From contig CAYWEW010000001.1 in assembly GCA_964457775.1 (NCBI GenBank), positions 17,783-81,782 on the forward strand: 64,000 bases of DNA, in the 5' to 3' direction. Shown here piece after piece: positions 13,684-33,351 of this stretch (position 1 is the stretch's first letter; each line of letters begins with the position of its first letter). This stretch comes from an uncultured Candidatus Saccharibacteria bacterium. Its GTDB lineage: Bacteria; Patescibacteriota; Minisyncoccia; Phycocordibacterales; UBA5272. A program made the translations under genes and the position numbers. The notes under the pieces were generated by a model. It was not told where the DNA came from. It ran no database searches and saw only the letters and a list, made by a program, of their open reading frames with translations.

Positions 13684-16600
13684 CTACTGACATGTCTCAT
13701 CTCTCATCGCCTGTCTTGTAACTTCATAAACCATTCCGGTTGGAGCAAGACCTATAGTTGCTTGGTAACCTTTTACAGCTTCTATAGTTTTATCACCATA
13801 AAATCCTGAGACTTCATTTAATAGTCCTTTAGATTGTAGGAATTTTTGTAATGTAGTTACTGCTGATGATTCTGCTCCTCGGTGAAGGTTGCGTGATATG
13901 TAAATGCATGCTGTACTTGCACCTAATACTTTAGCATTACCATTACTTGAGCTACTAAGTGTAACGACTTTTACCAAAACCTGTGTGGATGTTGAACCAT
14001 TTACACCCCCACATTTCATCCCATAATAAATACTATTTGTTACTGGCTTAATTGTTAAAGTGCCACTTGTGGCCCTTGTAACTGGACCATATTGCCCTGC
14101 GTGACTAAAATCACAATAATCAACATTAGTTGACGACCATCTCAAGGTTGTTGATCCATTAAGTGGCACCTGTGTTGGGTTTACTGTCATAGTAATTGTT
14201 GGTATTTTTAATACTGCAGGAGCAACCACTGTTGGGGTTGGAGTCAATGTATAAGTTTTTATAGTACCAGTTCCTCTTAGGCACATATCTGCATTTTTTG
14301 GTCCACTTGCGTCACAATAACTAATACATGCACTATCTGTATCCGCTACTGATGTTGCTGGGTTTGGTGATGCAATCATATTTGTGGCAGTATTTGTTCC
14401 CCCTCTAAAAAGACCACAAGTTAGTCTTGCCGTCGTATTAGTGACAACTGGTGTTGGTGTTGTAACTACAGAACCATTAACTATAAACGAATTTATTGGG
14501 AAATTGTAGATTAAAGCACCATGATGTTGTATATTGCCACCGATAAAATCATTCCATTTAAACGATGCAGGTAAGGCAAGGGAAGAAATTAATTTTGGTG
14601 TAAGACCTGTCTGTATTGTACCTGATACAGTTGCAAATACAGAAAATGTAATTGATGTACCTGCCGGTATCTCAAACGGAGAACTAGACGTTATCAAAAT
14701 ATATGACTCTAAAACCGTTGCAGATAAACCTGCTATAGTTGTATTACCATTTGCAACTCGTGGTGAAGAAATTTTAAAGCCATTTATACCAATTGAGGAA
14801 ACATTAAGAATAGTTGATGTAAAACCTATTTTTCCATTTACATCAGCACTCACTGTGAATTCACCAATCTTATTTTCAGAACCAAGCACTAGTGAGCCCC
14901 CACCATTACTTAAAGTAACTGTTGGTTTTGAAGCAACAAGTGTCATAATATTTGAGGATACTGGTGTGTTATTTATTATTACTGAACCATTAGCATTAGT
15001 TACTTCAATGTAATTAAGTGTTAATTTAACATTAGATACGCCAGAAGTTAAACTTCCTCCTGATGTTGAATTCTGAAAACCACTAAACTTAACTGTAACA
15101 GGCACATCGACTCCTGTTGAAGAAACAGGTAAGCTTAGTCCTGTAGCTGTTACGTTACCATTCACAACTGGAGCCGTTACTCCTCCAACAGTAACACTAG
15201 TTACAGCATCATTGCCTGTAGTTGAGAATCTTAGTTCACGAACAGTTGCAGACGTGTTAAATTCGGAAGTTCTAAGTTTAAATGTTGCAATACCGAATGT
15301 TGAACCGCCAACTACGAATTGTGATACAGGCGATGATGACACTAGTGTTGGATTAGCAATAGAAACAGAAGAAGTGTTCATGGCTGAAACTGCTGCTGTA
15401 GCCTGACTTGAATTAGTTATTGTTGTTGGGGTTTGATTTGGGCTTGGAGATGTCGCCATAGTTGGTGCTGGAGCTGAAGCGGGTGGTATATTTGAGTAAA
15501 TTTCCTCCATTTCCCATGTACATCTAATTGATTTTGTAGGATTATTATAACTATTAGTTACACAGTTAGTATATGCGTATTCTTTTGAAACATTTTCCGT
15601 AGAAATAAATGGCGCTGCACTACCTCCCAAATAACCTTTGTATGAACCCAGTTGAGTGGTAGGTATTGTTGTTATTTCTTGTTGAACATTCAAACCATAA
15701 TTGTTACTATTCCCTGTTCGAGAATTAGTAATATTTATAGTATGAAAACCAGATGAAAGATTTCTTGTTAATGCAAAGTCGCTTTTCTTAATAGAAATAA
15801 TACTATCTGTAGGATTAAATTTACTAACCATAGAATTACCCATGCCGTCTATTTGCAAATAATTACCATCTAAGTTTAATCTAGCTCCAGAAATTGTTAT
15901 ATATCCACTTACATCAGTTGCTTTAGATATATATGGCGAAGTTTCACCGATGATAATTACACTATTACTCTTCGCGTAGTTTACATATGAAGAAACATCA
16001 ACGACTTTTTGTGTGTTGGTGTTAATATCAACATAAGAAAGGTTCGAAGGCCTAAAACTATAAGCGCCAGCAAATAATTCTTTGGTTGGAATTGTATTTC
16101 TAATATAAATTGTAGCTGTATCATTTGCCTTGATTATTAGATTAGTGTCATTGGAATAATTATAGTCAGAAATAAAGCTGGACACAGAGCCTCTGTATTT
16201 TACGCCATTAGAATTAATACGCACATTTTCATTATTAACAAATCCTCCTAAATTTGTTGCAACGCCATACACACCATACACATCTATATCTGAATTTCCA
16301 GCAGTGATTTTTACCTTTGCAACACCAACTAATTCTGTCTCTTTATTATTTAAGTCATAAGAAAGTTTAATTGATGGTGCTCCAACAAACTCAATAACGG
16401 GGTATATCGTATTTGAAGAACTTAGTGCGCTTTCGGTTGTAAATGATAGAAACTCTCCCTTAACATTTCCTTTTGAGCCACTTGCAACTATTCTATAGTA
16501 ATATGTTGTATTGGGAGCCAGTTTGTAAATATTTGTTGAGCAACTTACAACTGTGTTTCCATCGTAGATATATGAACATGGCGTTGCGTTCAATTGTCCG

Positions 16601-17253
16601 TACATTGATGTCCCCCATTCAAACCAAGCTTTGGGTTTTAAAGTTCCATTATTAGGTTCAACATATCCAGCGATAAGAGCACTGTTATTTGTATAGTTAG
16701 CTCCAGTTGTTTTAACAGACACAAAAGAAAGGGTCTCTGATGTATTAGTGCGACACGGTTCATAAGAAACAGCACCATTACAATTATATATAGTTTCAAC
16801 AGGATTGTTTACATTAGGAGTTTTTGTTGACGGAACATCAACTGAAACAGTTTTAGTGTTTACTGAAGAAGCACTTCTACAGCTTATCTCCCTTATCTTC
16901 GCTCGTGTCACAGGACCAACATAACCAGAAGTTATGAACCCGTTCTTTTTTTGAAAATATTTAACTGCTTTAAGAGTAGAAGGACCGAACACGCCATTAG
17001 GTTCTGCTGTAAGAAACCCTTGGTCTTGAAGGAAATATTGTAAATCAGATACTTCTCCGTTAGTATTAGAATCTTTTGATTTCTTATAAGTTAAGTTATA
17101 AGATAAATCTGTACATCCCTCACTTGCTTGGTCTGGGGCTTCATCACCAACAATACTTGTTGTAACAGGAACCGCTATTGATGTTGCTGAAACAATTGAT
17201 AAAGAAAAACAAATTCCACTGATAATAGCACCTACTGTTAAATATTTTTTCAT
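13684..17253 (-). CDS. Giant secreted/surface protein (1189 aa) with two peptidoglycan-binding (PG_binding_1-like) domains
   Basis: Signal peptide (MKKYLTVGAIISGICFSLSIVSA). PGBD-like DLQYFLQDQGFLTAEPNGVFGPSTLKAVKYFQKKNGF near the N-terminus and LQKFLQSKGLLN...GDKTIEAVKGYQATIGL at the C-terminus. Long T/S/N-rich beta-type middle. Confidence 0.7.
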   Translation of the reverse strand: MKKYLTVGAIISGICFSLSIVSATSIAVPVTTSIVGDEAPDQASEGCTDLSYNLTYKKSKDSNTNGEVSDLQYFLQDQGFLTAEPNGVFGPSTLKAVKYFQKKNGFITSGYVGPVTRAKIREISCRSASSVNTKTVSVDVPSTKTPNVNNPVETIYNCNGAVSYEPCRTNTSETLSFVSVKTTGANYTNNSALIAGYVEPNNGTLKPKAWFEWGTSMYGQLNATPCSYIYDGNTVVSCSTNIYKLAPNTTYYYRIVASGSKGNVKGEFLSFTTESALSSSNTIYPVIEFVGAPSIKLSYDLNNKETELVGVAKVKITAGNSDIDVYGVYGVATNLGGFVNNENVRINSNGVKYRGSVSSFISDYNYSNDTNLIIKANDTATIYIRNTIPTKELFAGAYSFRPSNLSYVDINTNTQKVVDVSSYVNYAKSNSVIIIGETSPYISKATDVSGYITISGARLNLDGNYLQIDGMGNSMVSKFNPTDSIISIKKSDFALTRNLSSGFHTINITNSRTGNSNNYGLNVQQEITTIPTTQLGSYKGYLGGSAAPFISTENVSKEYAYTNCVTNSYNNPTKSIRCTWEMEEIYSNIPPASAPAPTMATSPSPNQTPTTITNSSQATAAVSAMNTSSVSIANPTLVSSSPVSQFVVGGSTFGIATFKLRTSEFNTSATVRELRFSTTGNDAVTSVTVGGVTAPVVNGNVTATGLSLPVSSTGVDVPVTVKFSGFQNSTSGGSLTSGVSNVKLTLNYIEVTNANGSVIINNTPVSSNIMTLVASKPTVTLSNGGGSLVLGSENKIGEFTVSADVNGKIGFTSTILNVSSIGINGFKISSPRVANGNTTIAGLSATVLESYILITSSSPFEIPAGTSITFSVFATVSGTIQTGLTPKLISSLALPASFKWNDFIGGNIQHHGALIYNFPINSFIVNGSVVTTPTPVVTNTTARLTCGLFRGGTNTATNMIASPNPATSVADTDSACISYCDASGPKNADMCLRGTGTIKTYTLTPTPTVVAPAVLKIPTITMTVNPTQVPLNGSTTLRWSSTNVDYCDFSHAGQYGPVTRATSGTLTIKPVTNSIYYGMKCGGVNGSTSTQVLVKVVTLSSSSNGNAKVLGASTACIYISRNLHRGAESSAVTTLQKFLQSKGLLNEVSGFYGDKTIEAVKGYQATIGLAPTGMVYEVTRQAMRDETCQ

Positions 17254-17406: not shown

Positions 17407-18804
17407 CTACCAAGAGAATGGCGCTGGGTTAGAAACTACCGTTGCCTTTGATGTTCCAATCACTTCCCCTCTTAAATTACTTACAATTACTTCGAAGACA
17501 ACTTCTTGTCTGTACCATGTAGGGTTAGTTATCATTGCTGGAATTTCATTTTGGAATGATGTTGGTGCAAGCGGAATAACAAAGTCTTGGCCACATCCAA
17601 CTCCTGCAATACTTACCGATACAGATGATGGGCAAATTGCATGAATCTTGATTGAATAATTTCCAAACAATGTATTATTCCATGAAGTTCCAGTTGGAAT
17701 ATTCAAATATAATTTGAATTTCTCTCCTGAATCAACTGGTGTCTTACTTGCTCCTAATGTTACATTTGCATAACCATAATATGGGCGACGAATAGTTATA
17801 GGTGCAACTGCGGCACGGAAGTTGGATACATTCCCTGCGATATCAGTCATTGGTGTAGCTATAACAATCTTAAATGATCCCTGTTGATTATTATCACAAG
17901 CTCCAGCACACACTGCATCTAATATTTCTTTTGTAAGTACGAATGAGAAACTATTACCTGATGTAACTGCTACTTGCTTACTTTGTCCTGTGCTTCCATT
18001 TTCAACTAGGATTTGAAGTTGTGCAATATTAAGATTACTTGTTGTCCATGATAAATAGACAGTATCCCCTTCGTTGTATAATGCGTTTGAAGTTGGACTT
18101 GTAATAGTAAGTGTTCCTGGTTGTGGAACAACACCATAAGCATAACCAGTTGATGGATTATATGTTAATCCAGTGCTTTGAATTTGATTTTGTGTTGTTG
18201 CAGGAATAAGTACATTTGTAGGAATAGAAGTATTTATTGCCTGATATTCATTTGAAGAATAGTTTGAAGTGTAAGCTGAAGAATAATAAGGAGTATTATT
18301 ATTTAAGATGTTTGAAAGAGAAATATTATTTTCTTGAGGAGTTGCATAAATAACAGGAGTTGTAACTTGTGGAGAAATAACAACTGCGTATGGGTCATAT
18401 TGATCAACATAAGTGATACCAGAACTATATCCATAATAACTGTACTCGTTATATGAATACATGTCGCCACGAACATCAGAATCACAAAGTCTCTCATTTA
18501 CAGCGTTACGAGTTGATTCTCCAACTTGACCAGTCATTGAGATATTATTATCTCTTTGGAATTTCATCACTGCCTGCTTTGTTCCCTGTCCAAAATAGCC
18601 ATTTGGGGTTGCATATAAATATCCAGCCTTTGAAAGCATATTTTGAAGCACATAAACATCGTTATTTTCTGACCCAACTTGTAAAGTTCTATTGATTTGA
18701 GTTGTACAAGTGTTTACCGGTGTATTGTTAAAATACCCAGCAAATACTGCCGTTTGACCACCAAAAACCCCCAGAAAACCCAATAATATAATAATCTTTT
18801 TCAT
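17407..18804 (-). CDS. Secreted protein (465 aa) with one peptidoglycan-binding-like domain
   Basis: Signal peptide MKKIIILLGFLGVFGGQTAVFA. PGBD-like DVYVLQNMLSKAGYLYATPNGYFGQGTKQAVMKFQRDNNI. Confidence 0.6.
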   Translation of the reverse strand: MKKIIILLGFLGVFGGQTAVFAGYFNNTPVNTCTTQINRTLQVGSENNDVYVLQNMLSKAGYLYATPNGYFGQGTKQAVMKFQRDNNISMTGQVGESTRNAVNERLCDSDVRGDMYSYNEYSYYGYSSGITYVDQYDPYAVVISPQVTTPVIYATPQENNISLSNILNNNTPYYSSAYTSNYSSNEYQAINTSIPTNVLIPATTQNQIQSTGLTYNPSTGYAYGVVPQPGTLTITSPTSNALYNEGDTVYLSWTTSNLNIAQLQILVENGSTGQSKQVAVTSGNSFSFVLTKEILDAVCAGACDNNQQGSFKIVIATPMTDIAGNVSNFRAAVAPITIRRPYYGYANVTLGASKTPVDSGEKFKLYLNIPTGTSWNNTLFGNYSIKIHAICPSSVSVSIAGVGCGQDFVIPLAPTSFQNEIPAMITNPTWYRQEVVFEVIVSNLRGEVIGTSKATVVSNPAPFSW

Positions 18805-21256: not shown

Positions 21257-21463
21257 AAATTTGTTTGTTGTGCGTTTTTATTCCTTATACGTTTAGAACC
21301 CCCAGAAGGGTGATCTTCCTCAGTAAACTTTTTTCGTCAAAAAAGTTTCATCGGACGGGCTCGTGGTTTTTCTTGCTAGAAAAACATCACTCCGCCTTTC
21401 GATCCCTTACGCAAGTGACACTGGTCACTCGCTCTGGTTTCCCAAAAACGCTTCGCTTATTTT

Positions 21464-21536
21464 GTGCCCCCAGAAGGGATCGAACCTTCGACCGTCTGCT
21501 TAAAAGGCAGCTGCTCTACCGACTGAGCTATAGGGA
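21464..21536 (-). tRNA. tRNA-Lys (anticodon UUU)
   Basis: Manual cloverleaf: acceptor GTCCCTA/TGGGGGC (two G-U pairs), D-arm GCTC-AGTCGGTA-GAGC, anticodon loop CTTTTAA, T-arm GAAGG-TTCGATC-CCTTC, discriminator A, no encoded CCA. Confidence 0.8.
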
Positions 21537-21842
21537 CATGTTTTTTATTTTACTACCTACTAACTAGGTAAACGTTTTAATATATCTACCGACTTGCGTC
21601 AACGCTTGCTAGCTTATGACATCTTCGCTTCCAGGAAGCGAATCTGTTGATTCGGCCACGTTCTCTAGCTACGCGGGACCCTTAATGGTAATTAGGATGA
21701 ATAACATTAAACATCTTTTTACTAATAACGTTTCAATATACTAACATAAAATACAATACTTTTCCAGTATGGGAAGAGAGTTGGTTTATAAACGTACTTT
21801 CTTCCCCATATAATCACAGAGAATATCTGTTACACTTAATTT

Positions 21843-23653: not shown

Positions 23654-26005
23654 TTAAATAATTTGTAAATTACTTCCAAGAGTTCGTGAGGCTTTAATAG
23701 GTAAATCAGACAGCTTTCTTTTTGAGAGAACATTTTCAAGTACGAGAACTAATTCATCTGCAACTTTTTCTGCAATGTCTTCATCTATTTCAAAAACTAG
23801 TTCATCGTGAATCTGTAATACTAACTTAACCTTGTCATCCAACTTCTTTTCATTAATAAAATCCGCCGTATCTAACATTGCCAACTTAATAATATCCGCA
23901 CTCGTCCCCTGCACTGGAGCATTAATCGCAATACGCTCACCGGACGCACGAAGAAATGGTAGAGGACTTTTGAGTAATGGAACTTCACGACGACGGCCTA
24001 ATAGTGTCTCGGTATATCCATGCTTCCACGCGAAAGCTTTCACTTCTTCAAGATATTTCATTAGTGTCGAGAAAGTAAATTTGTACTGATCATAAAATTC
24101 CTGCGCTTCTTTTCGCTCAACACCCATACCCTCTTTCAGAGCTGTTACTCCCATACCATAGAGAATTCCGAAATTAATTGCCTTAGCTTTTCTTCTCATA
24201 TCAGAAGTTACCTTTTCTTCTTTTACCCCGAATACTCTCGCTGCGGTTCCAGTGTGTACATCAATTCCTTTTTGGAAAATCTCAACCAAATTTTCATCCC
24301 CTGACAAAATAGCTGCGGCTCGCAAATCAATCTGAGCATAATCACATGAAAGCAAAACTTTCCCCTTCGCTGAAATAAAAGCAGACCTTACCTTTTGACC
24401 AAGTTCGCTCTTAATTGGAATGTTTTGCAAATTTGGCTCCTCACAACTAAATCTTCCTGTCCCCGAACCTGTCTGCACGAAATGTGCATGTATTCTTCCG
24501 TCATCCTTCACATATGTTGGCAGTGAGTCAATATAAGTTGAAAGTAGTTTTGTAAGTTCACGATATTCTAGAATATAAACAATTGACGGATGTTCATCCT
24601 TAATCTTTTCAAGCTCAGAAACATTGGTGCTCTTCTGCCCAGTTTTGGTTTTTTTAATTTTGGTTCCAAGATCTAGCTTTTCATATAAGACTTCTCCTAA
24701 TTGTTTTGGAGATGAAATATTAAATTCACTGCCTACTGACTCATAAATTTTTTGTTCGAGAACTTTCACTTGAGCATGTAACTCCTCGCTCATCTTTTTT
24801 AATTTATCTACATCTAATGTAATACCATTCTTCTCCATTTCATCCACTCTTTTAATAAGTGGCTTTTCGACATTAATAAACAAATCCCAAAGCTTTTCTT
24901 TTTTGAGTTCCTCTTCTAGGAATTTTCGCATCCCATCTCTAGTTTTTTCTCCGGTAATATTTTCTATATCCTCTATAGGTGCCTTTGTCATTTCACTATG
25001 AAGAAGATGCGTCATAACTTGAAGTTCTTTCATATCTTCTTCACTTATTATTTCTTTTTCTTCTACGACAGTTTCTTGTGTGAGGCCTCCCTCATCTTTC
25101 ATTGCATGTAAACGATTACGCATAGAACGAAATTCGTACAAATCACACATCTCTTGATACTTTGGTATGTTAATTGTTTCTAACCATACTTTTTCTGGTT
25201 CATTATAAGTGACTGGGGCATCACGTCTAATTGTTGCAAGCGTCTTCGAAAATAATGCTTCGTCTTCCCCTTCTTCAAGAAGTCCTACAATACGTTCTTT
25301 GAATCCGTCGTCCAATAATTGTTGTCTGTTGTTTTTCAATACTTCATATATTTTCTCAACTGAACCATAATGCTTAATAAGTTCTGTTGCAGTCTTATCT
25401 CCAATGCCTTTGATGCCAATAATATTATCTGATGTATCTCCAGCGAATCCTTTATAATCAGGAATATGTTCTGGACCAAAACCAAATCTATCCATCACAC
25501 TTTTTGTATTAAATAAAACTGTCTCTGCACCTTTTTTGAAAGTATATACAGTTACTTTATCATCATCAATTAGCTGAAAGGTATCCATATCACCACTAGC
25601 AATAATAATTCTAGTATCTTTATGTTTTTTTAATTGTTCAGCAATTGTTCCTAATAAATCGTCAGCCTCGAACCCTTCGCATGTATAAACTGGTATAGAA
25701 AGAGCTTCACATAATTTGTAAGACTCTTTAATTTGATCAATAAGTTCGTCATCTGTTTTTTGTCTTCCACCTTTATAGGCATCATAACTAAGATGACGAA
25801 ACGTTGGTTTCGGTAAGTCATAACATGCTGCAATATAATCTGGTTTTATGTTTTCGTAAATTTTAAGCACCATAGACAAGAACCCGTACAGTGCTCCTGT
25901 TGGTCTACCGTCACGTGTAGCGAATCCTCCCATAGCATGGTAACCGCGATGTAATATCGCATGTGCATCAAGTAACACAATAGTTTTCATTGTGCTTTTT
26001 TTCAT
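23654..26005 (-). CDS. polA: DNA polymerase I (5'-3' exonuclease + polymerase domains)
   Basis: 783 aa. The N-terminal 5'-nuclease domain carries acidic clusters. Pol A motifs RRKAKAINFGILYGMG and QIHDELVFE. Confidence 0.9.
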   Translation of the reverse strand: MKKSTMKTIVLLDAHAILHRGYHAMGGFATRDGRPTGALYGFLSMVLKIYENIKPDYIAACYDLPKPTFRHLSYDAYKGGRQKTDDELIDQIKESYKLCEALSIPVYTCEGFEADDLLGTIAEQLKKHKDTRIIIASGDMDTFQLIDDDKVTVYTFKKGAETVLFNTKSVMDRFGFGPEHIPDYKGFAGDTSDNIIGIKGIGDKTATELIKHYGSVEKIYEVLKNNRQQLLDDGFKERIVGLLEEGEDEALFSKTLATIRRDAPVTYNEPEKVWLETINIPKYQEMCDLYEFRSMRNRLHAMKDEGGLTQETVVEEKEIISEEDMKELQVMTHLLHSEMTKAPIEDIENITGEKTRDGMRKFLEEELKKEKLWDLFINVEKPLIKRVDEMEKNGITLDVDKLKKMSEELHAQVKVLEQKIYESVGSEFNISSPKQLGEVLYEKLDLGTKIKKTKTGQKSTNVSELEKIKDEHPSIVYILEYRELTKLLSTYIDSLPTYVKDDGRIHAHFVQTGSGTGRFSCEEPNLQNIPIKSELGQKVRSAFISAKGKVLLSCDYAQIDLRAAAILSGDENLVEIFQKGIDVHTGTAARVFGVKEEKVTSDMRRKAKAINFGILYGMGVTALKEGMGVERKEAQEFYDQYKFTFSTLMKYLEEVKAFAWKHGYTETLLGRRREVPLLKSPLPFLRASGERIAINAPVQGTSADIIKLAMLDTADFINEKKLDDKVKLVLQIHDELVFEIDEDIAEKVADELVLVLENVLSKRKLSDLPIKASRTLGSNLQII

Positions 26006-26469
26006 ACTCTATTTTTTTCATCCATCTCTTCATACATCAAAGTAACTTCTCGAGTATCATCATCGATTATGGTAAAAAGCATTTCTAGGTCCGGCTTCAG
26101 ATATTTCATCTTTGTTGGCCATTCAATAGCCAAGATAGTATCTGACTCTCCTAAGTCATCTTCGATTCTAAGAACGCGACCCTCTTGTGGAGTATTGAAT
26201 CTATACGCATCAATGTGAATTAATTTTTTGAATTGGGCATGTTCTGCATCGTATTCTTTTTTTAGAATAAATGTAGGACTATTAACCTTATGTTTATCTA
26301 TACCAATTAAAGATGCAAGTTCTTTTGTAAATGTAGTTTTACCTGAACCTAAATCACCATCAAGTAGAAGCACTTTTGCTTTTGAAGTTTCTTTTGTATA
26401 CAGCAAATGAAGAACTTTTTGAGCAAGTTCTTCCATGTCCTTTTCAGTTACTTCAAAGGTTTCTTTCAT
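26002..26469 (-). CDS. tsaE: tRNA threonylcarbamoyladenosine biosynthesis protein TsaE
   Basis: LLDGDLGSGKTTFTKELA...VNSPTFIL is the YjeE/TsaE signature. Overlaps the polA start by 4 nt. Confidence 0.8.
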   Translation of the reverse strand: MKETFEVTEKDMEELAQKVLHLLYTKETSKAKVLLLDGDLGSGKTTFTKELASLIGIDKHKVNSPTFILKKEYDAEHAQFKKLIHIDAYRFNTPQEGRVLRIEDDLGESDTILAIEWPTKMKYLKPDLEMLFTIIDDDTREVTLMYEEMDEKNRV

Positions 26470-26485
26470 ATAACATATAATACCA

Positions 26486-26518
26486 CAAAAGAGCGACCAC
26501 TTCGTGGTCGCTCTTTTG
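26486..26518. terminator. Terminator hairpin
   Basis: caaaagagcgaccac-ttcg-gtggtcgctcttttg. Confidence 0.55.
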
Positions 26519-26552
26519 TTAACTTTCGTCTCACATAAGGCATTATTTTATG

Positions 26553-28487
26553 TTACTTTGCATTCTCTTTATCTTCTTGATAAGAGGCATATATACTACG
26601 CGCAAGTATGAAGATGATAAATATTATAGCAATGAGAGCTAACCATTCAACAAGATTGTTTGGCATAAAACCTCTCTCACTGCCTGCTCCAATTACTTTC
26701 TTAGCTCCAGTATCTTTATTACTGATACTGTCATTAGGAGTAATTGAACCTACAACATAAGCAGTTACCTCGTCCTGTACAGATGTATTTGGAACCGTAT
26801 AAATTACATATGCTGTAGTTACTATTGATTTACCAATCGTAGCATCTTGTGCAATTTTGCCTGAGATAGCTACAACTCCTTCTGCGTGAGCATCAAGTGT
26901 GTCTTGATTGATTGTTAATATATGTGTTGCTTCATCATATACACCAGAAGTTGCGAGATCGAATTTTATTTCTGCAGGAATTAGAACTTTTACAACTACA
27001 CCTTTAAGACGTGAGTCTGTAGCATTCTTGTAAGTAATTCTATATGACACTGGAGAATTTGCAGAAAGATTTCCTTCACTTTTTTCTACTCTAAGAGTTA
27101 CAAGCTTTTCACCTTGATTAAGCATTGATGCTTGTGTTTCACTTTTTGCATAGAAACTAGAACCATCTGTACATGTTACGAGAGTTTGTTTCTTAACAAC
27201 TTCTGTAACTACTTTCTTTGTAACAGTCTTCTTTGTTGTTGTGACAGGCTTTACATATGTGGTTACAGCATTCTTTGTGACAAAACTCACTATTTCACCT
27301 TTTACAATTCCATATTGATTCTGCATTACAGCACGACAGTAATAACGTGTTGATGGCTTAAGATTTGCAAGTACATTTGAAAATGGTGCAGATGATGAAT
27401 TACCAATTGAAGCAGTTGCTGTTGTTCGACCAAGACTTGATGTTTCACCATATTCGAACCATCCAGTTGAAGGTGCTCCGTTTGCAATAAGCCCAATACC
27501 GTTACAACGACCACTTGTGTTTGTGATTTGAGTTACAACTGAAGTAACAACATTGTTGAATTTAACGGTTGGTAAAGGAGTAACTGTAGGATATCTAACT
27601 ATTGGTTGAGTATTGTAGTAATTCGAACCACTATAATATGTTGTTGGTTGTGTGTAATTATTAGTATTGTAATTTACAGGACAAAGTGATGAATAAGAAA
27701 CGATTGTTCCATTCCAACATGTGTAATTTGTATTTACTGTATTAATTGTACATACACCATTAACTAATGTTGAGCCAGATGGACATGAAGTATTTGTAAT
27801 TTGGCAAGTACCATTTATAAGAGTTGACCCTGATGGACAAGATACTGAATTAATCTGACATGTTCCGTTTACTAATGTTGAGCCTGATGGACAAGATACA
27901 TTATTATTGTTTGTATATCCACCGTAAGTGTATCCATAACTACCAACTGTTGGTGCGTAATTATAACCACCATAGTTATAACCAGCTTGACCATAACTAA
28001 TTCCAATTTGATATGAAGGTGAACTGTATGATGAAACACCGTATGTTGCTGATGAAACATCAGATGTTGTGTATGGTGGGTAGTTTACACCAGTTTCATA
28101 AGTAGGATATGTTGTGTCTGTGTTATAAGTTGGGTAGGTAGTACCACCACTGTACGATGTTGAGTACGTAGTACCGGTGTCATATATTGGATATGTAGTT
28201 CCTCCACTGTATACAGGATATGTAGTTCCCCCACTGTATGTAGTACCAGTGTCATATATTGGATATGTAGTTCCTCCACTGTATACAGGATATGTGGTTC
28301 CCCCACTGTATGTAGTACCAGTATCGTATATTGGATAATTTGTTGTTCCGCCGGAATATGAACTTACTGAACCAACAAACCCATCATCAAATTGAAGTTG
28401 AGCAAAGGCAATAGAAGTACCTTGAAGAAGCAGAACTCCTGCAAGAAAAACAGATACAATGTTTTGTTTTTTCATGATTGTTTTCAT
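26553..28487 (-). CDS. Repetitive cell-surface protein (644 aa) with signal peptide, tandem peptide repeats and C-terminal TM anchor
   Basis: Signal MKTIMKKQNIVSVFLAGVLLLQGTSIAFA. About three 24-aa YSGGTTYP(V/I)Y repeats, three 18-aa SCPSGSTLxNGTCQI repeats, C-terminal LVEWLALIAIIFIIFILA. Confidence 0.65.
   Translation of the reverse strand: MKTIMKKQNIVSVFLAGVLLLQGTSIAFAQLQFDDGFVGSVSSYSGGTTNYPIYDTGTTYSGGTTYPVYSGGTTYPIYDTGTTYSGGTTYPVYSGGTTYPIYDTGTTYSTSYSGGTTYPTYNTDTTYPTYETGVNYPPYTTSDVSSATYGVSSYSSPSYQIGISYGQAGYNYGGYNYAPTVGSYGYTYGGYTNNNNVSCPSGSTLVNGTCQINSVSCPSGSTLINGTCQITNTSCPSGSTLVNGVCTINTVNTNYTCWNGTIVSYSSLCPVNYNTNNYTQPTTYYSGSNYYNTQPIVRYPTVTPLPTVKFNNVVTSVVTQITNTSGRCNGIGLIANGAPSTGWFEYGETSSLGRTTATASIGNSSSAPFSNVLANLKPSTRYYCRAVMQNQYGIVKGEIVSFVTKNAVTTYVKPVTTTKKTVTKKVVTEVVKKQTLVTCTDGSSFYAKSETQASMLNQGEKLVTLRVEKSEGNLSANSPVSYRITYKNATDSRLKGVVVKVLIPAEIKFDLATSGVYDEATHILTINQDTLDAHAEGVVAISGKIAQDATIGKSIVTTAYVIYTVPNTSVQDEVTAYVVGSITPNDSISNKDTGAKKVIGAGSERGFMPNNLVEWLALIAIIFIIFILARSIYASYQEDKENAK
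27757..27920. repeat. Three tandem 54-bp repeats inside the surface-protein gene (encode the SCPSGSTLxNGTCQI units)
   Basis: Units begin at 27757, 27811 and 27865 with about 80% identity. Confidence 0.7.
28100..28345. repeat. About 3.4 tandem 72-bp repeats inside the surface-protein gene (encode the YSGGTTYP units)
   Basis: Near-identical units start at 28179 and 28251 (gtcatatattggatatgtagttcctccactgtatacaggatatgt...). Confidence 0.7.
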
Positions 28488-28521
28488 AATTGTTTTATCT
28501 ATTACCTTTAATAAGAATTAT

Positions 28522-28550
28522 ATTATATCACCTTTATTATTAAATGTCAA
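28522..28550 (-). promoter_or_regulatory. Minus-strand sigma70-type promoter with exact consensus TTGACA-17-TATAAT driving the surface-protein gene
   Basis: Reverse complement reads cTTGACAtttaataataaaggtgaTATAATataattc, about 35 nt upstream of the ATG at 28487. Confidence 0.55.
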
Positions 28551-28564
28551 GCCCTTTTTATAAT

Positions 28565-28595
28565 AAAAAACAGGTCACCAAAGGAGGTGACCTGT
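28565..28595. terminator. Terminator hairpin downstream of the 266-aa minus-strand gene
   Basis: aaaaaacaggtcacc-aaaggag-gtgacctgt. Confidence 0.5.
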
Positions 28596-28615
28596 GCTGA
28601 GCATACAGCTTGCTT

Positions 28616-29416
28616 TTACTTCTGCTGATAGGTAACTTGGTCAATTTCAACCCTTCCACCACCACCAACACGGCCGATCCAGACGCTTTCCGACTCCCCT
28701 TGTTTCGGAGAAATAATCGAGAAAGTGGCACAGAACGGGGGCCTTCCCTCTCCGTTGCCGGAGGAGAAGATGCACCTGCCAGGATTTTGCTGGGTGGCAG
28801 TGTTTTCGCGCCAATACCAAACGGCATCAGAGCGAGAAACGTGACCAGTAACTACGGGTGGAACGACGGCGGGTATGACTGGTGCAGAAGCTGTGGCTGG
28901 AATCACTGGTTTTTTTGGTTTTTCCGCCTTCGGTTTACTGGTCGGCTTTTTGGGAGTCACCGGAGCAACTACCACCTTGTCTTCCATGTTCGGCTTTTGG
29001 ACCTCACTTGTAGGACAAGCAACTTCACACTTCTTCGCCAAGGCGATTAGTGCTTGGTCAGCCTTCTTTTCAACCGAAGCAAGACCGTTCTTGACCCCCG
29101 CAACCTCGCTGTTATCAGCTTTGGTAAACCAGAGAACAGTTCCAGTAATCAGAGCAAGACCAATCGCAAGCAAACTGCACCAGGAGCAACCTTTGTTGTT
29201 CTTAGGTGAATCGCCACCGGATGACGGAGGAGGTGTGTCACCACCAAGTCCGTTTTCCCTGAAAGACTTTTCAGCCTTTCTGGCGGCGTCCGAAGCTTCT
29301 TTCGACGCGGCGTCAGCTGCTTTTTTGGCGGCTGCGGCGGAAACTGCTTTCTGTGCTGCTTTTTCCATTTCCTCCGCAGCAATGCGGAGGCCTTCAGGTG
29401 TGATCTTCTTGGTCAT
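28616..29416 (-). CDS. Hypothetical bitopic membrane protein with N-terminal Ala/Lys-rich coiled coil; GC-rich gene
   Basis: 266 aa. Strong RBS (aaggaggtcatcATG), cytoplasmic AAEEMEKAAQKAVSAAAAKKAADAASK, one TM (CSLLAIGLALITGTVLWF), Pro/Lys-rich extracellular part. The gene is about 55% GC against about 35% background. Confidence 0.55.
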   Translation of the reverse strand: MTKKITPEGLRIAAEEMEKAAQKAVSAAAAKKAADAASKEASDAARKAEKSFRENGLGGDTPPPSSGGDSPKNNKGCSWCSLLAIGLALITGTVLWFTKADNSEVAGVKNGLASVEKKADQALIALAKKCEVACPTSEVQKPNMEDKVVVAPVTPKKPTSKPKAEKPKKPVIPATASAPVIPAVVPPVVTGHVSRSDAVWYWRENTATQQNPGRCIFSSGNGEGRPPFCATFSIISPKQGESESVWIGRVGGGGRVEIDQVTYQQK

Positions 29417-29556
29417 GATGACCTCCTTTAAATTGATTTTTCAAAATATCATTAACGACTGAATTTACCTGTCGATGACTCTGTGGATGATTATATCATA
29501 TTATTATTAAAAAGTCAAGCTTTACATCTACGAAAAGTACTGCATTATTTCAAAAT

Positions 29557-29592
29557 AAAAACCCCTCTAATCTTTCGATTTGAGGGGTTTGT
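29557..29592. terminator. Terminator hairpin downstream of the lipoprotein gene
   Basis: aaaaacccctc-taatctttcgattt-gaggggttt. Confidence 0.5.
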
Positions 29593-29610
29593 TGGGAGTG
29601 CCGGATTCGA

Positions 29611-30267
29611 CTACTCCCCTTTGTGAGGATCGTCCGGCAGCATGCAGACCATGTTGCCGTCTTGCGGATGACCTTGCCATGCGAGCTTAGCCCAGACTTT
29701 GCCATCCTTACAGCGCGATGGAACTGCACTTGCAACCTTTTCGGGTTGGGTACTGTTGCCAGCGCGATGCGAGTCGTCCGGTGCCATGCAGACCATGTTG
29801 CCGTCTTGCGGATGACCTGGCCATGCGAGCTTAGCCCAGACTTTTCCATCACTACAACGGTTCTGCGGTTGGGTCATGACTTGTTGGACTTGTTGTTGTT
29901 CGCTTTCGCAGTATTTGTTACCTGCGAATGCTCCGACAAGCCCACCGATGATGGCACCGATTCCACGGTTTTCCTCACCACCAATCAGTGCACCACCTAC
30001 AGCACCAGCTGCACCGCCGACAAGTTCACACTTACCGATGTTGGCTCCTGCCTGCATCACTGGTGCAAAATTCCCTTGCGGTTGCGTAATCAGGCGCCCA
30101 TCCCAGCATTCCTGAGGTTGGCCGAGTTTTTGTGGTGCAGGAACGCACCCTGGAGGAAGACGATACGAGTTATTCGCACCGACTCCCATACCCATGCCAC
30201 CTGTTGCACATCCTCCGAGGAGGAGTGTGGCAACAGCGAGAAGTACTGCAAACAGTTTGTTTTTCAT
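29611..30267 (-). CDS. Lipoprotein with glycine-zipper (SlyB / 17-kDa-antigen-like) segment and two tandem 45-aa Cys-containing repeats; GC-rich
   Basis: Signal plus lipobox-like LLLGGC. Glycine zipper VGGAAGAVGGALIGG...GAIIGGLVGAFAG. Repeats C(S/K)DGKVWAKLAW(P/Q)GHPQDGNMVCM(A/L)PDD. Confidence 0.6.
   Translation of the reverse strand: MKNKLFAVLLAVATLLLGGCATGGMGMGVGANNSYRLPPGCVPAPQKLGQPQECWDGRLITQPQGNFAPVMQAGANIGKCELVGGAAGAVGGALIGGEENRGIGAIIGGLVGAFAGNKYCESEQQQVQQVMTQPQNRCSDGKVWAKLAWPGHPQDGNMVCMAPDDSHRAGNSTQPEKVASAVPSRCKDGKVWAKLAWQGHPQDGNMVCMLPDDPHKGE
29636..29905. repeat. Two tandem 135-bp repeats inside the lipoprotein gene
   Basis: cgtccggcagcatgcagaccatgttgccgtcttgcggatgacc... at 29641 and again at 29775 (about 90% identity). 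Confidence 0.7.
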
Positions 30268-30381
30268 GACTTTCTCCTGTAATTAGAATCAATGAGCAGA
30301 TCTCATTTGATTGGAATGATTTCCAACCTACTGAGCTGTATATAGTATACATGTTTTATGGATTTTGTCAAGCTAAATTAT

Positions 30382-30410
30382 TTGACAAATGTACTATACT
30401 ATAGTATATT
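30382..30410 (+). promoter_or_regulatory. Sigma70-type promoter TTGACA-17-TATATT
   Basis: ttgacaaatgtactatactatagtatatt; RBS aaaaggag and ATG 30454 follow. Confidence 0.5.
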
Positions 30411-30453
30411 ATATTTGTTCTTTTCCATACGACGATAAAAAGGAGCCTCTAAA

Positions 30454-30651
30454 ATGGTCCACCCAGTACTGAAAAAAGCGATAGTTGACGGCAGAAAGAG
30501 TGAACTCGAGATTCTCGCAACCCAGTTTCACGAGCAACTCAGCCTACGTGATACTGGAGCAACAGCAAAGATCACCTACAAAGCAATCAAGACTCTGGCG
30601 ACTCCAGAAGAAGTGATTGAAATTCTAGAAAATGAATTCAATTTAGTGTAA
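30454..30651 (+). CDS. Small hypothetical protein (65 aa) with strong promoter, RBS and terminator
   Basis: MVHPVLKKAIVDGRKSELEILATQFHEQLSLRDTGATAKITYKAIKTLATPEEVIEILENEFNLV. Confidence 0.45.
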   Translation: MVHPVLKKAIVDGRKSELEILATQFHEQLSLRDTGATAKITYKAIKTLATPEEVIEILENEFNLV

Positions 30652-30661
30652 ACCACAAACA

Positions 30662-30690
30662 TCAACCCCCGACTAGTTCGGGGGATTTAT
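30662..30690 (+). terminator. Terminator hairpin
   Basis: atcaacccccgac-tagt-tcgggggattt. Confidence 0.55.
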
Positions 30691-30751
30691 ATATGTTGTT
30701 TGTTAAAATTTTTTGACAAATTATATAAAGGTTTTATTAAAAATGACTAAA

Positions 30752-30785
30752 AGTGACCCTGTAAGGGGTCACTTTTTTTAAACAC
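30752..30785 (+). terminator. Second terminator hairpin with T-tract
   Basis: aaaagtgaccc-tgtaa-ggggtcacttttttt. Confidence 0.55.
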
Positions 30786-30814
30786 AGAATCCTGAAAACT
30801 TAAGATTTTAGATG

Positions 30815-30897
30815 CAGTACGAGGAGCATAGGAATTTTTCGAGGAAGTCGTACAAATAGTACGACGACTAAGAAAAATTCCGTAGCGACAAAGTAAT
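30815..30897. repeat. Copy a of a ~85-nt structured intergenic repeat family (four copies in the window)
   Basis: acgaggagcataGGAATTTTTCgaggaaGTCGTACaaataGTACGACgactaaGAAAAATTCCgtagcgacaaagta. Outer 10-bp stem encloses an inner 7-bp hairpin. Ends 19 nt after the rplE stop. Confidence 0.6.
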
Positions 30898-30915
30898 GCG
30901 CTAAAATATTAAGTT

Positions 30916-31470
30916 TTATGCTTTTTTGAACGGGATGCCGAGTAGTTCAAAGAATCGAGTCGCCTCCTCTTTTGTCTTTGCCGTTGTTCCAAGAGTAATA
31001 GCCATACCGAACACATCCTTTAATTCTTCATCGTGAATTTCTGGGAAGATAGTATGTTCCTTGATGCCAAATGTCATATTACCAATATTGTCTACTGATG
31101 TACGATTAAGACCACGGAAGTCCTTTGTACGTGGAAGTGAAACATTGAGTACCTTATCCAAGAAACCAAACATGCGAGCACCGCGAAGTGTTACTGCAAC
31201 ACCGATTGGATCCCCTTCACGAGTTTTGAATGACGCAACTGACATCTTCGCTTTACGAATAGTTGCCTTTTGTCCTGTAATCTTTGAAAGACGATCGAGA
31301 ACTAAGTCGTTAAATTTTTTATCACGCTTCATTGCTGAGCCCGTAGCTACAGAAATGTTAACCTTAACAAGTCTTGGGGCTGCCATTATATTCTTATAAC
31401 CAAATTCTTTTGCAAGAACTGTATACGCTTGCTTTTGCTTATCTTGTACACTCATTATTTTTTCTGCCAT
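30916..31470 (-). CDS. rplE: 50S ribosomal protein L5, detached from the rest of the cluster
   Basis: 184 aa, L5 motifs (MAAPRLVKVNISVATGSA..., GVAVTLRGARMFGFLDKV). Confidence 0.9.
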   Translation of the reverse strand: MAEKIMSVQDKQKQAYTVLAKEFGYKNIMAAPRLVKVNISVATGSAMKRDKKFNDLVLDRLSKITGQKATIRKAKMSVASFKTREGDPIGVAVTLRGARMFGFLDKVLNVSLPRTKDFRGLNRTSVDNIGNMTFGIKEHTIFPEIHDEELKDVFGMAITLGTTAKTKEEATRFFELLGIPFKKA

Positions 31471-31647
31471 ATATTTATTCTAAGCACGATTGGTCCTTGA
31501 GGATATACCTTTCCGGACGTTATACGTCGCTTATTTGTAGAAATTTTCCTTTCTACATTACTGTTAGTAGACTTATACTCTACTACAAAATGGACTATTT
31601 GTAAACAACAAAAATCGACCACTTTTGCTATTTAAATATGCATTATT

Positions 31648-32097
31648 TTATTTCTTTTGAGCTTTCTTAATAACCCCCAACCTAAACTCTGAATATATAG
31701 CATATCTATTAGCAAAAAATGGATTCTCTTTTTCCAATATCTTATATGCAAAAGAAACAATTTCTTTAGTTGAAACATATTTACTTCTTAATTTCATAAT
31801 TTCATCAATTATTTCTCTAGTTAATCTCTTAGCCTTAGCTGCATCGTCTCCCTGGTCACGAATTTTTCCCCCTATTACTGCATTAAAAATAGAAACAAAA
31901 AGCTTTTCATAAACGAATTTCTTTCGGACTAAATTCCTTTTAACAACAAACAATGAGTCGTGTGAGAAATATTCTGTTGTTGTATATATTTCTCCACATT
32001 TCAAACACTTTCTTCTCCGCCAAACCCCTACCTCATCAGTTGTTTTTCGAGAATTAATGACTTCAGTTTTTATACTTTTACAAAATGGACATTTCAT
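31648..32097 (-). CDS. nrdR: Transcriptional repressor NrdR (zinc ribbon + ATP-cone)
   Basis: MKCPFCKS...TEVINSRKT...RRRKCLKCGEIYTTTE N-terminal zinc ribbon; 149 aa. Confidence 0.85.
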   Translation of the reverse strand: MKCPFCKSIKTEVINSRKTTDEVGVWRRRKCLKCGEIYTTTEYFSHDSLFVVKRNLVRKKFVYEKLFVSIFNAVIGGKIRDQGDDAAKAKRLTREIIDEIMKLRSKYVSTKEIVSFAYKILEKENPFFANRYAIYSEFRLGVIKKAQKK

Positions 32098-32226
32098 GTA
32101 TACATATTGTCATAAAAATATATAAATATCAATAGATATGTATACATACAGCCATATCAATTATTTTGATAACAAATACACTGATATGTGTAGTTCTTTT
32201 ATTAATCACAAATAAGGAGAATCAAA

Positions 32227-33318
32227 ATGAATAAAGATATTAAAAGAATCGTCATCACTGGTGGCCCCTGCTCTGGTAAAACTACAGGCATGAGCTATCT
32301 TTCACAAAAACTTTCCGACTTAGGTTATCATGTTATTGTTGTCCCGGAATATGCAACTGAAGTCATAAATGGAGGTGTTACCCCTAGTAAAAATATTTCT
32401 ATTTATGACTTTCAAGAAAACATCGTTCTTGGCCAAATAGAAAGAGAAAAACGTTATCTTTCTTTTGCAAAATGTCTTGAAAGTGAAAAAGTTATTATTA
32501 TTTTCGACCGTGGGACCCTTGATTCGAAAGCGTATATCGATGAAGAATCTTGGTTAGTGATGTTGGAAGAAAATAGTTTAAATGAAGTCAAACTTCGTGA
32601 TGAAAGTTATGACGCGGTTATTCATATGCGTACTGTTGCATTAGGTAAAGAAGAGTTTTATACCAAATTGAACAACAGCGCTAGATTTGAAAATCCAGAA
32701 GAAGCAAGAGTGGCTGACGAAAAAACTTTATCCTCATGGATTGGACACACACATCTACGTGTTATTGATAATCGTGATGATTTTTCTTCCAAAATACATC
32801 GAGTTCTTGCTGAAGTACTTCATGTGCTAGGTGAGCCAATACCTCTTGAGATTGAAAGGAAATACTTGGTGAATGAATCTTTTGATTGGAAAAATATTCC
32901 TGTCGCCTACCAAGAAATAGATATTGAGCAAGCATACTTGGTCATAGGTGGAAGAATCAGAAAAAGAGGTCAAGGTGATGTCTTTATTTATACCGAGACC
33001 CATAAAGAAGACATTGGTGGAAGTTTCATTCGCACTGAAGTTGAGAAGAGGATTTCTTCTCGTGAATATCACGATAAGTTAAAAAATATTGTCCCTGGAA
33101 GTAGTATTATCAAGAAAAAAAGAATTTGCTTTGTCTATAATGAGCAATACTTTGAACTTGATTACTTCATCGATATAAAACAAAATCCTTATCTTGAAAT
33201 AGAACTCACCGACAAAAATCACGAAATTAATCTTCCTCCTTGGATTCCAGTTATTAGGGATGTGACGGAAGAAGTGGGTTTTAGTAATCGTGAACTTGCT
33301 CTTAAGTCTTGTGGTTAA
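32227..33318 (+). CDS. Fusion protein: N-terminal P-loop NTPase (AAA_28/NadR-like) + C-terminal CYTH (triphosphate tunnel metalloenzyme) domain
   Basis: Walker A ITGGPCSGKTT and Walker-B-like IIIFDRGTLD in the first ~190 aa. The second half begins with the CYTH signature IEIERKYLV. Confidence 0.55.
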   Translation: MNKDIKRIVITGGPCSGKTTGMSYLSQKLSDLGYHVIVVPEYATEVINGGVTPSKNISIYDFQENIVLGQIEREKRYLSFAKCLESEKVIIIFDRGTLDSKAYIDEESWLVMLEENSLNEVKLRDESYDAVIHMRTVALGKEEFYTKLNNSARFENPEEARVADEKTLSSWIGHTHLRVIDNRDDFSSKIHRVLAEVLHVLGEPIPLEIERKYLVNESFDWKNIPVAYQEIDIEQAYLVIGGRIRKRGQGDVFIYTETHKEDIGGSFIRTEVEKRISSREYHDKLKNIVPGSSIIKKKRICFVYNEQYFELDYFIDIKQNPYLEIELTDKNHEINLPPWIPVIRDVTEEVGFSNRELALKSCG

Positions 33319-33323
33319 AACTA

Positions 33324-33351
33324 AAAAACGGACACTTAGGTGTCCGTTTTT
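33324..33351 (+). terminator. Terminator hairpin
   Basis: aaaaaacggacac-ttag-gtgtccgtttttg. Confidence 0.55.

Follow-up and report, generated by a model that had tools for sequence, protein, structure and literature searches.

At 28.5–30.3 kb of a 64,000 nucleotide (nt) stretch of contig CAYWEW010000001.1, from an uncultured bacterium of the candidate phyla radiation (CPR), two adjacent genes stand out by their GC content. The whole of this stretch is termed here the window. One gene encodes a 218 amino acid (aa) glycine-zipper (lipo)protein, referred to as GZ, and the other a 266 aa single-pass membrane protein, referred to as the partner. The original prediction for the locus, made from the sequence letters, was that of a compositionally foreign islet of horizontal, possibly proteobacterial, origin. 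The unusual composition is borne out by the present analysis; the foreign origin is not.

The gene pair and its composition

The GC content steps from ∼0.33–0.37 to 0.45–0.55 across 28.5–30.3 kb, with a dip at 29.4–29.6 kb. In 600 nt windows it averages 0.370 (standard deviation 0.039) and peaks at 0.557 at position 29601; 11 such windows exceed 0.48, all of them within 28501–30400 and nowhere else in the 64 kb. At the 1 kb scale, too, the rest of the window never reaches the level of this region. The sharp rise predicted at ∼28.56–30.30 kb is genuine, and the window has no second one. The value of 55% that had been attached to it holds for the GZ open reading frame (ORF), but not for the partner ORF (52%) or for 28560–30300 as a whole, which is 50.5% GC as opposed to 36.6% in the remaining window.

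The excess extends to silent positions. GC at third codon positions (GC3) is 0.48 and fourfold-site GC 0.45 in the GZ ORF (overall GC 0.55), and the values are 0.49 and 0.44 in the partner ORF (overall 0.52). Across 66 long ORFs in the window, GC averages 0.38 and GC3 0.27, and the genes flanking the pair have a GC3 of ∼0.25 and a fourfold-site GC of 0.18. Because GC3 and fourfold-site GC are raised too, the anomaly is not merely an effect of proteins rich in Gly, Ala and Pro. Third-position base usage in the pair is near flat (A.23, C.24, G.24, T.28); in background genes it is A.36, C.11, G.12 and T.41. The excess is also confined to the ORFs. The 194 nt spacer between them (29417–29610) is 33% GC and the outer spacers are 30%. 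At the outer edges of the region GC drops to 18–34% inside ∼50–100 nt, and in 50 nt windows it falls from ∼0.5 to 0.2–0.3 exactly at the ORF ends.

Both GC-rich ORFs are, by their pattern of substitution, genuine coding genes under purifying selection. The ratio of nonsynonymous to synonymous substitution rates (dN/dS), relative to the orthologues of the nearest genome, L001, is 0.23 for GZ and 0.25 for the partner, and the proportion of synonymous differences (pS) exceeds that of nonsynonymous differences (pN) along the gene. It is extremely improbable that an assembly chimera, contamination, a GC-rich structured RNA or an antisense gene takes the place of the two ORFs. Structured RNAs commonly form GC-rich islands in AT-rich genomes, the folding z-scores of the region are strongly negative (see below), and a 219 aa antisense ORF spans the GZ gene. 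However, dN/dS is ∼0.24 with pS above pN, and the region has no Rfam match at the gathering score, nor any beyond noise at E ≤ 1. The antisense ORF is broken in four of six orthologues and was rejected as a gene; it is open, in phase with the sense codons, because the codons TTA, CTA and TCA are absent. Chimerism is excluded, since many independent assemblies from many samples show an identical arrangement.

Each gene has one hairpin terminator of its own, as predicted, and also a near-consensus promoter (Table 1). Strong Shine-Dalgarno (SD) sequences had been predicted for both genes. The partner gene has one (AAGGAGGT), but the ribosome-binding sequence of the GZ gene, CAGGAGAA, is weaker. 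The stretch that comprises the GZ promoter, the 5′ untranslated region (UTR) and the signal peptide is 85% identical to that of L001.

Table 1. Positions in the window of the features of the GZ–partner pair and its downstream neighbour (TM, transmembrane; AF2, AlphaFold2; pLDDT, predicted local distance difference test score).
Feature	Position	Strand	Basis or remark
GZ promoter, TTGACA-16-TATACT, AT-rich	30344..30371	-	near-consensus, sigma-70-type
GZ gene, 218 aa glycine-zipper (lipo)protein	29611..30267	-	ORF; PF13488 and PF05433 above cut-off
GZ signal peptide, aa 1–20; lipobox LLLGG|C, aa 16–20	30208..30267	-	sequence reading
GZ N-terminal two-Cys loop, class X, CVPAPQKLGQPQECWDG, aa 41–57; mosaic segment	30097..30147	-	motif comparison
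GZ glycine-zipper 2TM helical hairpin, between Cys80 and Cys120	29908..30030	-	Pfam (aa 82–119); AF2; GAIIGGLVGAFAG
GZ C-terminal two-Cys module, copy 1, aa 138–166	29770..29856	-	repeat D1; AF2 beta-hairpin, pLDDT 84–86
GZ C-terminal two-Cys module, copy 2, aa 186–214	29626..29712	-	repeat D1; AF2, pLDDT 86–90
GZ terminator, hairpin with 14 nt arms, then T-run	29559..29590	-	inverted repeat I2
Partner promoter, TTGACT-17-TATAAT, extended -10	29490..29518	-	resembles promoter of next gene (repeat D2)
Partner gene, 266 aa single-pass membrane protein	28616..29416	-	ORF; SD AAGGAGGT
Partner TM segment, CSWCSLLAIGLALITGTVLWF, aa 77–97	29126..29188	-	sequence reading; AF2 helix 83–95
Partner C-terminal extracytoplasmic domain, allele class A	28619..28825	-	alignments A3, A4
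Partner terminator	28570..28595	-	hairpin
Downstream neighbour, 644 aa repeat-rich surface protein with C-terminal TM anchor	26553..28487	-	PF01345 (DUF11/CLIPPER); GC3 0.17

The GZ protein has nine Cys residues: Cys20 of the predicted lipobox, LLLGGC, which is present, and what are likely to be four disulfide pairs (41/54, 80/120, 138/160 and 186/208). The lipobox is kept in the family members P0002–P0004. In deeper relatives the signal peptide ends in ...AQC instead, which is read as a signal-peptidase-I type. Codons 1–60 have a pN of 0.39–0.53 relative to the L001 orthologue. The predicted glycine zipper, GAIIGGLVGAFAG, is confirmed by the hidden Markov model (HMM) check that had been suggested: Gly-zipper_Omp (PF13488) scores 32.4 bits (cut-off 25) and Rick_17kDa_Anti (PF05433) 31.6 bits (cut-off 24.2). 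The AF2 model gives helices at 79–95 and 101–128, with a pLDDT of about 65–70. Throughout the family, residues G84, G85, G88, A89, G97, G108, G112, A113 and G116 do not vary, and 8 of 14 distant members also match a glycine-zipper Pfam profile.

A Gln-rich linker separates the hairpin from two C-terminal modules of ∼30 aa with the pattern C-x2-G-K-V-W-A-K-L-x-W-x-G-H-P-Q-D-G-x3-C. These are the two tandem Cys-containing repeats of the original prediction, with a period of 48 aa (144 nt) instead of 45 aa; at the DNA level they form the direct repeat D1, with 91% identity across 86 nt. The module is conserved in family members down to E ∼1e-8, and it has no match in Pfam, NCBIfam or the PDB. Outside the hairpin, GZ as a whole has none in Pfam, NCBIfam, PHROGs, PADLOC or PDB sequences; PHROG matches are restricted to the glycine-rich segment. 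The AF2 model of GZ is mediocre overall (pLDDT 62) but confident for the two-Cys beta-hairpin modules (84–90), and a Foldseek search of the model against the PDB gave nothing with E < 0.8.

The partner has an Ala/Lys-rich N-terminal helix that is predicted to be cytoplasmic, then the TM segment, a further helix, a Pro/Lys-rich linker and a conserved C-terminal two-Cys domain, a layout that agrees with the predicted Ala/Lys-rich N-terminus, single TM segment and Pro/Lys-rich exterior. In its class A form (see below) the C-terminal domain, of ∼70 aa with two Cys, reads WYWRENTAT..NPG.CIFS.G.G.G.PPFCATF...RVGGGGR, and the pattern of the whole domain family is WYWRENxAT..NPGxC..SGGxGxGxPP.C...RVGGG. 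In some lineages the partner has a cleavable signal peptide and in others an N-terminal TM anchor. It belongs to no known family in Pfam, NCBIfam or the further profile searches, and PADLOC has no match for the pair. On these profile comparisons, the two-Cys module of GZ and the C-terminal two-Cys domain of the partner are undescribed in the libraries searched. The Cys pattern, the signal peptides and the TM or signal-peptide variants of the partner point to both proteins being extracytoplasmic and disulfide-bonded.

Two further ORFs of the window, 1545–1979 (+) and 56345–56902 (+), have a moderately raised GC3 (0.50 and 0.41) and neither a signal peptide nor a Pfam match; possibly these are accessory genes, acquired genes or more cases of gene-specific composition. 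A 100 aa ORF at 21265–21567 (GC3 0.50) overlaps a tRNA gene and is probably spurious. The window also has a tmRNA at 54152–54541 (+) and tRNA genes at 50468–50540 (+) and 21465–21537 (-).

The locus in related lineages

Relatives of the pair are few. Among 5.8 billion proteins, nine were found for GZ and four for the partner. When 1.84 billion representatives were searched exhaustively with a GZ HMM, 269 had a match with E ≤ 1e-3, most of them to the glycine zipper alone; the 19 with E ≤ 1e-10 share the Cys modules. A profile search with the partner alignment added one more protein among the matches listed. Scans of genome contigs and of metagenome contigs gave one locus each, and a single GTDB species representative, a Gracilibacteria metagenome-assembled genome (MAG), has the pair. 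Beyond the hairpin, GZ has no homologue outside its family in the 1.84 billion representatives.

Contigs L001–L005, L007–L012 and L014–L016 were read around the pair, and the window was compared with 10 further lineages. Every relative with readable DNA sits in the same type of locus, in related low-GC CPR contigs labelled 'Ca. Gracilibacteria', and the L5 protein of the window falls in the same 90% cluster as the L5 of a 'Candidatus Gracilibacteria bacterium' MAG. The order is rplE or pilB, GZ, partner, large surface protein, tsaE and polA, and the partner gene lies directly downstream of GZ in 11 of 11 lineages. Upstream, rplE is found in the subclade of the window and a divergent pilB-type ATPase gene elsewhere; this PilB/T2SSE-type gene divergently adjoins the pair in the deeper relatives (L007 4852–6549, L012 6109–7812, L014 2131–3834 and L015 183–1886). 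In L005 and L009 the pair is preceded by genes for an SLT lytic transglycosylase and a 156 aa secreted protein. Downstream, a large protein (573–799 aa) follows wherever the contig reaches (L001, L002, L007, L012 and L016; partial in L003), with a weak DUF11/CLIPPER match in L001, L002 and L012 only.

The GC excess is shared by these relatives. Both ORFs are 49–65% GC in 10 of 10 further lineages, and the spacers are 28–44%. Over the 11 lineages, the GC3 of the pair is 0.41–0.64 and its fourfold-site GC 0.34–0.66; the flanking housekeeping genes have a GC3 of about 0.17–0.36 and a fourfold-site GC of 0.09–0.32. Three neighbouring ORFs for hypothetical or secreted proteins reach a GC3 of 0.39–0.42, and in the neighbourhood GC3 is lowest, at 0.17–0.29, in the gene for the adjacent surface protein, which also evolves fast. 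In the polA and tsaE genes, synonymous sites are saturated between the window and L007 (pS 0.64–0.70), and the GC3 of the pair is 0.48–0.59 in both. Because synonymous turnover on such a scale would erase a foreign signature, by a two-state amelioration argument, a GC3 of ∼0.5 is taken to be the equilibrium specific to these ORFs. By these comparisons the GC anomaly is ancient, lineage-wide and limited to the ORFs, and is not read as an unameliorated foreign signature.

It is accordingly very improbable that the pair is a recently acquired islet whose SlyB-type gene, for an outer-membrane lipoprotein, came from a proteobacterium that was a host or lived nearby. In favour of such an origin are the atypical GC and codon usage and a glycine-zipper domain that is best known from proteobacterial outer-membrane lipoproteins. 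However, an islet is expected to be patchily present, and the pair was found at the syntenic position in 10 of 10 related lineages recovered; the orthologues in all 10 CPR lineages, which include all the close homologues, have the same locus and the same GC excess, an outcome that the original prediction had itself named as its refutation. The absence of homologues beyond the hairpin outside the family, a match of E = 0.11 to SlyB, and scores far under cut-off with the NCBIfam equivalogs also stand against it. So do promoters and spacers of native type, and the lack of an integrase, a tRNA target and flanking direct repeats. No integrase or transposase gene is found among the ORFs at 26.5–32.5 kb, the only repeats are the internal 144 nt repeat and promoter-like repeats, and the nearest tRNA genes are at least 7 kb away. 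An origin from a phage or mobile element was rejected as well: IMG/VR has no viral relatives of the pair, PHROG matches cover the glycine-rich segment only, and PADLOC is negative. With a probability of roughly 0.55, the pair is instead a native, clade-restricted two-gene envelope module with a compositional equilibrium of its own, and not a recent import from another phylum.

Some features of the neighbourhood may be added. The 644 aa surface-protein gene has its own promoter at 28522–28550; it contains 72 nt tandem repeats at 28164–28337, which encode YSGGTTYP[IV]YDTGTT, and its product has three VSCPSGSTL[VI]NGTCQI repeats. The interval between rplE and GZ (30389–30915) is strain-specific. 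In the window it holds a 65 aa ORF at 30454–30651 (+), with a GC3 of 0.42, no family match, its own divergent promoter (30382–30410) and a bidirectional terminator (30666–30684); in its place L001 has an unrelated 66 aa ORF (15% identity). Two genes for large proteins at 13684–17253 (-) and 17407–18804 (-) have an N-terminal PG_binding_1 domain (E = 2e-22 and 4e-16), high GC at second codon positions and a GC3 of 0.19–0.20; their products are probably wall-associated surface proteins.

The Gracilibacteria are a group annotated with genetic code 25. Table 11 was applied to the window because its ORFs are intact under that table and TGA acts as a stop that terminates bona fide genes, e.g. tsaE at 26002–26469 (-). 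The recorded L005 gene call at 8743–9657 reads through a TGA three codons short of its end.

Mosaic evolution and the cause of the GC excess

The pair evolves rapidly. Between the window and L001 the flanking proteins are 95–97% identical, whereas GZ is 67%, the partner 37% and the large surface protein 73% identical; the synonymous divergence (dS) is 1.06 for GZ and 2.2 for the partner, as opposed to 0.27–0.81 for the flanks. The closest allele to the GZ of the window is 65–69% identical and the closest partner domain 66%. The partner domains fall into two allele classes. Class A comprises the window, L010, P0012 and P0013, with a mutual identity of 56–70%; class B comprises L001, L005, L007, L009, L011 and L014, with a mutual identity of 53–75%; identity across the classes is 34–45%. 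The domain of the window is 66, 59 and 61% identical to those of L010, P0012 and P0013, but only 42% identical to the class B domain of L001. The L5 protein of the window is 90% identical to that of L010, while its flanking proteins are 95–97% identical to those of L001.

The N-terminal part of GZ is likewise mosaic. Its loop CVPAPQKLGQPQECWDG (motif X) recurs in the distant members P0031, P0043, P0008 and P0028, and the closest full-length relatives (P0002, P0005–7 and P0026) bear PPQFLCNGRW in its place. Nucleotide identity to L001 over 25501–33351 is 93.6% on the rplE–nrdR side and 88% on the tsaE–polA side, a difference that hints at a breakpoint of recombination in or close to the locus. 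From the discordant allele classes and the unequal flanks it follows that members of the clade exchange alleles or modules here. Such exchange of modules is a signature of surface determinants under diversifying pressure. The lateral transfer of the original prediction thus survives in a restricted form: the partner gene and the N-terminal part of GZ look exchanged, but with alleles of the same CPR clade. L001–L004 differ solely in rplE. As a test of vertical inheritance, rank correlation is underpowered, with a rho of 0.55 for L5 and GZ (p = 0.10) and none for PilB and GZ (n = 6).

What force keeps the pair off the compositional equilibrium of its genome is a question of wider interest, and selection at synonymous sites and a bias linked to recombination are both possible answers. 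One reading, with chances put a little short of even, is that some force on the coding sequence keeps these genes at a compositional equilibrium of their own; the likeliest such force is selection for an mRNA-level property such as stability or folding. A more elaborate version is doubtful. In it, mRNA-level selection would hold a clade-wide set point of ∼50–60% GC in a pair that carries two undescribed disulfide surface modules swapped between lineages; selection at synonymous sites would favour, for example, nuclease-resistant, long-lived and highly structured transcripts of host-contact proteins, and the swapping of modules would serve as a system of diversification at the interface with hosts or phages. 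The transcripts are more stably folded than dinucleotide shuffles (z-scores of -6.4 and -4.8). With block synonymous shuffles, the mean folding z-score is -2.37 for 22 genes of the pair and -0.42 for 18 other genes of the window (p = 7e-6). No motif enrichment was found for 2-, 5- and 6-mers relative to synonymous shuffles, beyond the universal avoidance of TA and a GGTGG that stems from Gly runs.

The alternative is that recombination drives the composition. The locus would be a hotspot within the clade, with GC-biased gene conversion or with circulating alleles, some of them from GC-richer members; in the version with a circulating pool, alleles would not ameliorate because they reside too briefly in AT-rich genomes. 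This is possible, if on the unlikely side. The discordant allele classes of the partner and of the GZ N-terminus, the different divergence of the two flanks, and a pair dS above that of the flanks all fit with it, as do the existence of a GC-rich relative (L015), a pair GC that stays roughly constant (0.49–0.65) regardless of the GC of the surrounding genome, and the near-uniform third-position composition. However, the GC excess ends ∼50–100 nt from the ORF ends, and the spacer and the ∼70 nt 5′ UTR are 28–44% GC in every lineage. The lowest GC3 belongs to the surface-protein gene next to the pair, which is just as variable; near-identical alleles common to divergent genomes were not found, and viral carriers were not found in IMG/VR. 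Because of the ORF-limited edges and the low GC3 of the adjacent variable gene, a regional cause, whether mutational context or a hotspot of GC-biased conversion, fits poorly.

Several points weigh against the pair as a native module with a compositional equilibrium of its own. The sole lineage with a GC-rich flank, L015 (pilB GC3 0.59), is a possible GC-richer reservoir; its flank means, therefore, that the clade covers a range of genome GC over which the pair is roughly constant. Under the same shuffles, twelve ordinary Escherichia coli genes of similar GC have a mean folding z-score of -1.42 (p = 0.04 relative to the pair); the mRNA-structure signal is thus unspecific and is taken as a lead, not as a result. 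Near-uniform use of third positions resembles the absence of bias, or a source pool of ∼50% GC, and not directional selection. The exchange of alleles makes recombination-linked causes, i.e. GC-biased gene conversion and circulating cassettes, serious rivals. For the partner, AF2 yields only a poor model (pLDDT 43), and no useful match came out of the fold searches for the pair. Finally, the lineages compared are only 11, mostly on short metagenomic contigs.

Possible function and comparison with known systems

Recognition of hosts and attachment to them are largely unknown in CPR bacteria (Patescibacteria), and the pair is a concrete candidate for a variable interface with hosts or phages. 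It is proposed, tentatively and with the odds against it, that the pair joins the large surface protein next to it in a variable assembly at the cell surface or the site of host contact. This is suggested by the small modules on stalks, the strict pairing, the surface-protein and frequent pilB neighbours, and the mosaic evolution. In such an assembly, a lipid anchor and/or signal peptide would tether GZ on the outer side of the cytoplasmic membrane. Its hairpin, with ends stapled on one side by a disulfide, would insert into the outer leaflet of that membrane and probably oligomerise, by analogy with known glycine-zipper proteins. GZ would display two small disulfide-bonded beta-hairpin modules on its Gln-rich linker, and the partner would present another small domain, also with two Cys, on a stalk that is partly helical and partly rich in Pro and Lys. 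The exposed modules would be swapped within the clade by homologous recombination, under diversifying pressure from hosts or phages.

Perhaps GZ is instead a secreted, membrane-perturbing effector directed at hosts or competitors, with a partner that protects the producer or aids delivery, the two being engaged in an arms race. A precedent is a glycine-zipper, membrane-damaging toxin of the type VII secretion system in the monoderm Streptococcus suis (PMC12955049). Many GZ family members have a signal peptide that lacks a lipobox, and the two genes are strictly adjacent, fast-evolving and mosaic. However, the canonical lipobox of the window GZ implies retention on the producer, and this protein has no LXG, PT-VENN or other toxin-delivery domain and no toxin-domain or PADLOC match; a PT-VENN match (E = 4.5e-4) is present in one distant family member. 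The partner, in addition, is itself secreted with a signal peptide in some lineages, unlike an immunity protein. An effector/immunity role for the pair is improbable.

Proteins of the SlyB and TraT types, with a glycine zipper, insert in membranes and oligomerise. Like GZ, outer-membrane lipoproteins of the SlyB/PCP type have an N-terminal lipobox, a linker and a helical hairpin of ∼40 aa that is rich in GxxxG/A; the 17-kDa antigen of Rickettsia is a member of the same PF05433 family as SlyB/PCP. By analogy, the GZ hairpin probably inserts in the membrane and oligomerises in a similar way. The likeness to SlyB that had been proposed extends to this hairpin but not to the full length of the protein. 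Outside the hairpin the two have no similarity. Searched with the family profile, the SlyB of the PDB (7ojf) reaches E = 0.11, Foldseek gives it E = 1.7, and the best NCBIfam equivalogs score 13–28 bits against cut-offs of 28–300. Unlike SlyB/PCP, GZ has a hairpin bracketed by conserved Cys residues, an extra N-terminal Cys loop, C-terminal two-Cys modules and a dedicated partner gene that is always present. The lipobox is not conserved across the GZ family, and GZ occurs in a CPR lineage, in which an outer membrane is presumed to be absent. By its domain matches GZ is a member of the glycine-zipper 2TM domain proteins (PF05433/PF13488), not a SlyB orthologue. Nor is the glycine zipper diagnostic of an outer membrane; the Streptococcus suis toxin, from a monoderm, has one (PMC12955049). 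From a glycine-zipper lipoprotein one should infer neither an outer membrane nor an origin in Proteobacteria.

TraT and other oligomeric glycine-zipper lipoproteins, of the YfgH, TagQ and YiaD types, are, like GZ, surface or envelope lipoproteins, and they resemble it weakly in the glycine-zipper segment. The matches of GZ are weak (TraT in Pfam, E = 0.42; TraT and SlyB in Foldseek, E > 1; TagQ and YiaD in NCBIfam, E ∼1e-6). All of them are far under the family cut-offs and cover aa 75–139 only, and GZ, unlike these proteins, has no OmpA-like or TraT body domain.

Loci that undergo allelic replacement, such as those for capsule and O-antigen, exchange surface determinants in a cassette-like manner between conserved flanks. 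The pair locus resembles them in its conserved flanks, highly divergent alleles, discordant allele classes and atypical composition. Classical islands of this kind are usually AT-poorer or AT-richer than their surroundings, a property attributed to import from another species, and their composition ameliorates. Unlike the capsule and O-antigen cases, the composition of the pair is stable over saturating divergence and is limited to two small ORFs. Anomalies in GC and codon usage are routinely taken as signs of recent horizontal transfer, and the pair locus is a clean counter-example.

A hypervariable surface-protein gene of a BD1-5 Gracilibacterium, which encodes an extracellular, membrane-anchored protein, has a GAC:GAT usage of 6.2:6.7, as opposed to 0.83:4.79 in the genome (Sieber et al., 2019; PMC6851277). 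Like the pair, it is a CPR surface gene with extreme local variation and with codons that are more often GC-ending than those of the genome (PMC6851277). The BD1-5 gene is of the PTD tandem-repeat kind, and its variation is found inside a single population (PMC6851277), whereas the pair consists of two non-repetitive ORFs with a GC shift across the whole coding sequence in many lineages. The BD1-5 gene is a different kind of gene, likened here by description only, and is the closest analogue of the pair found in the literature.

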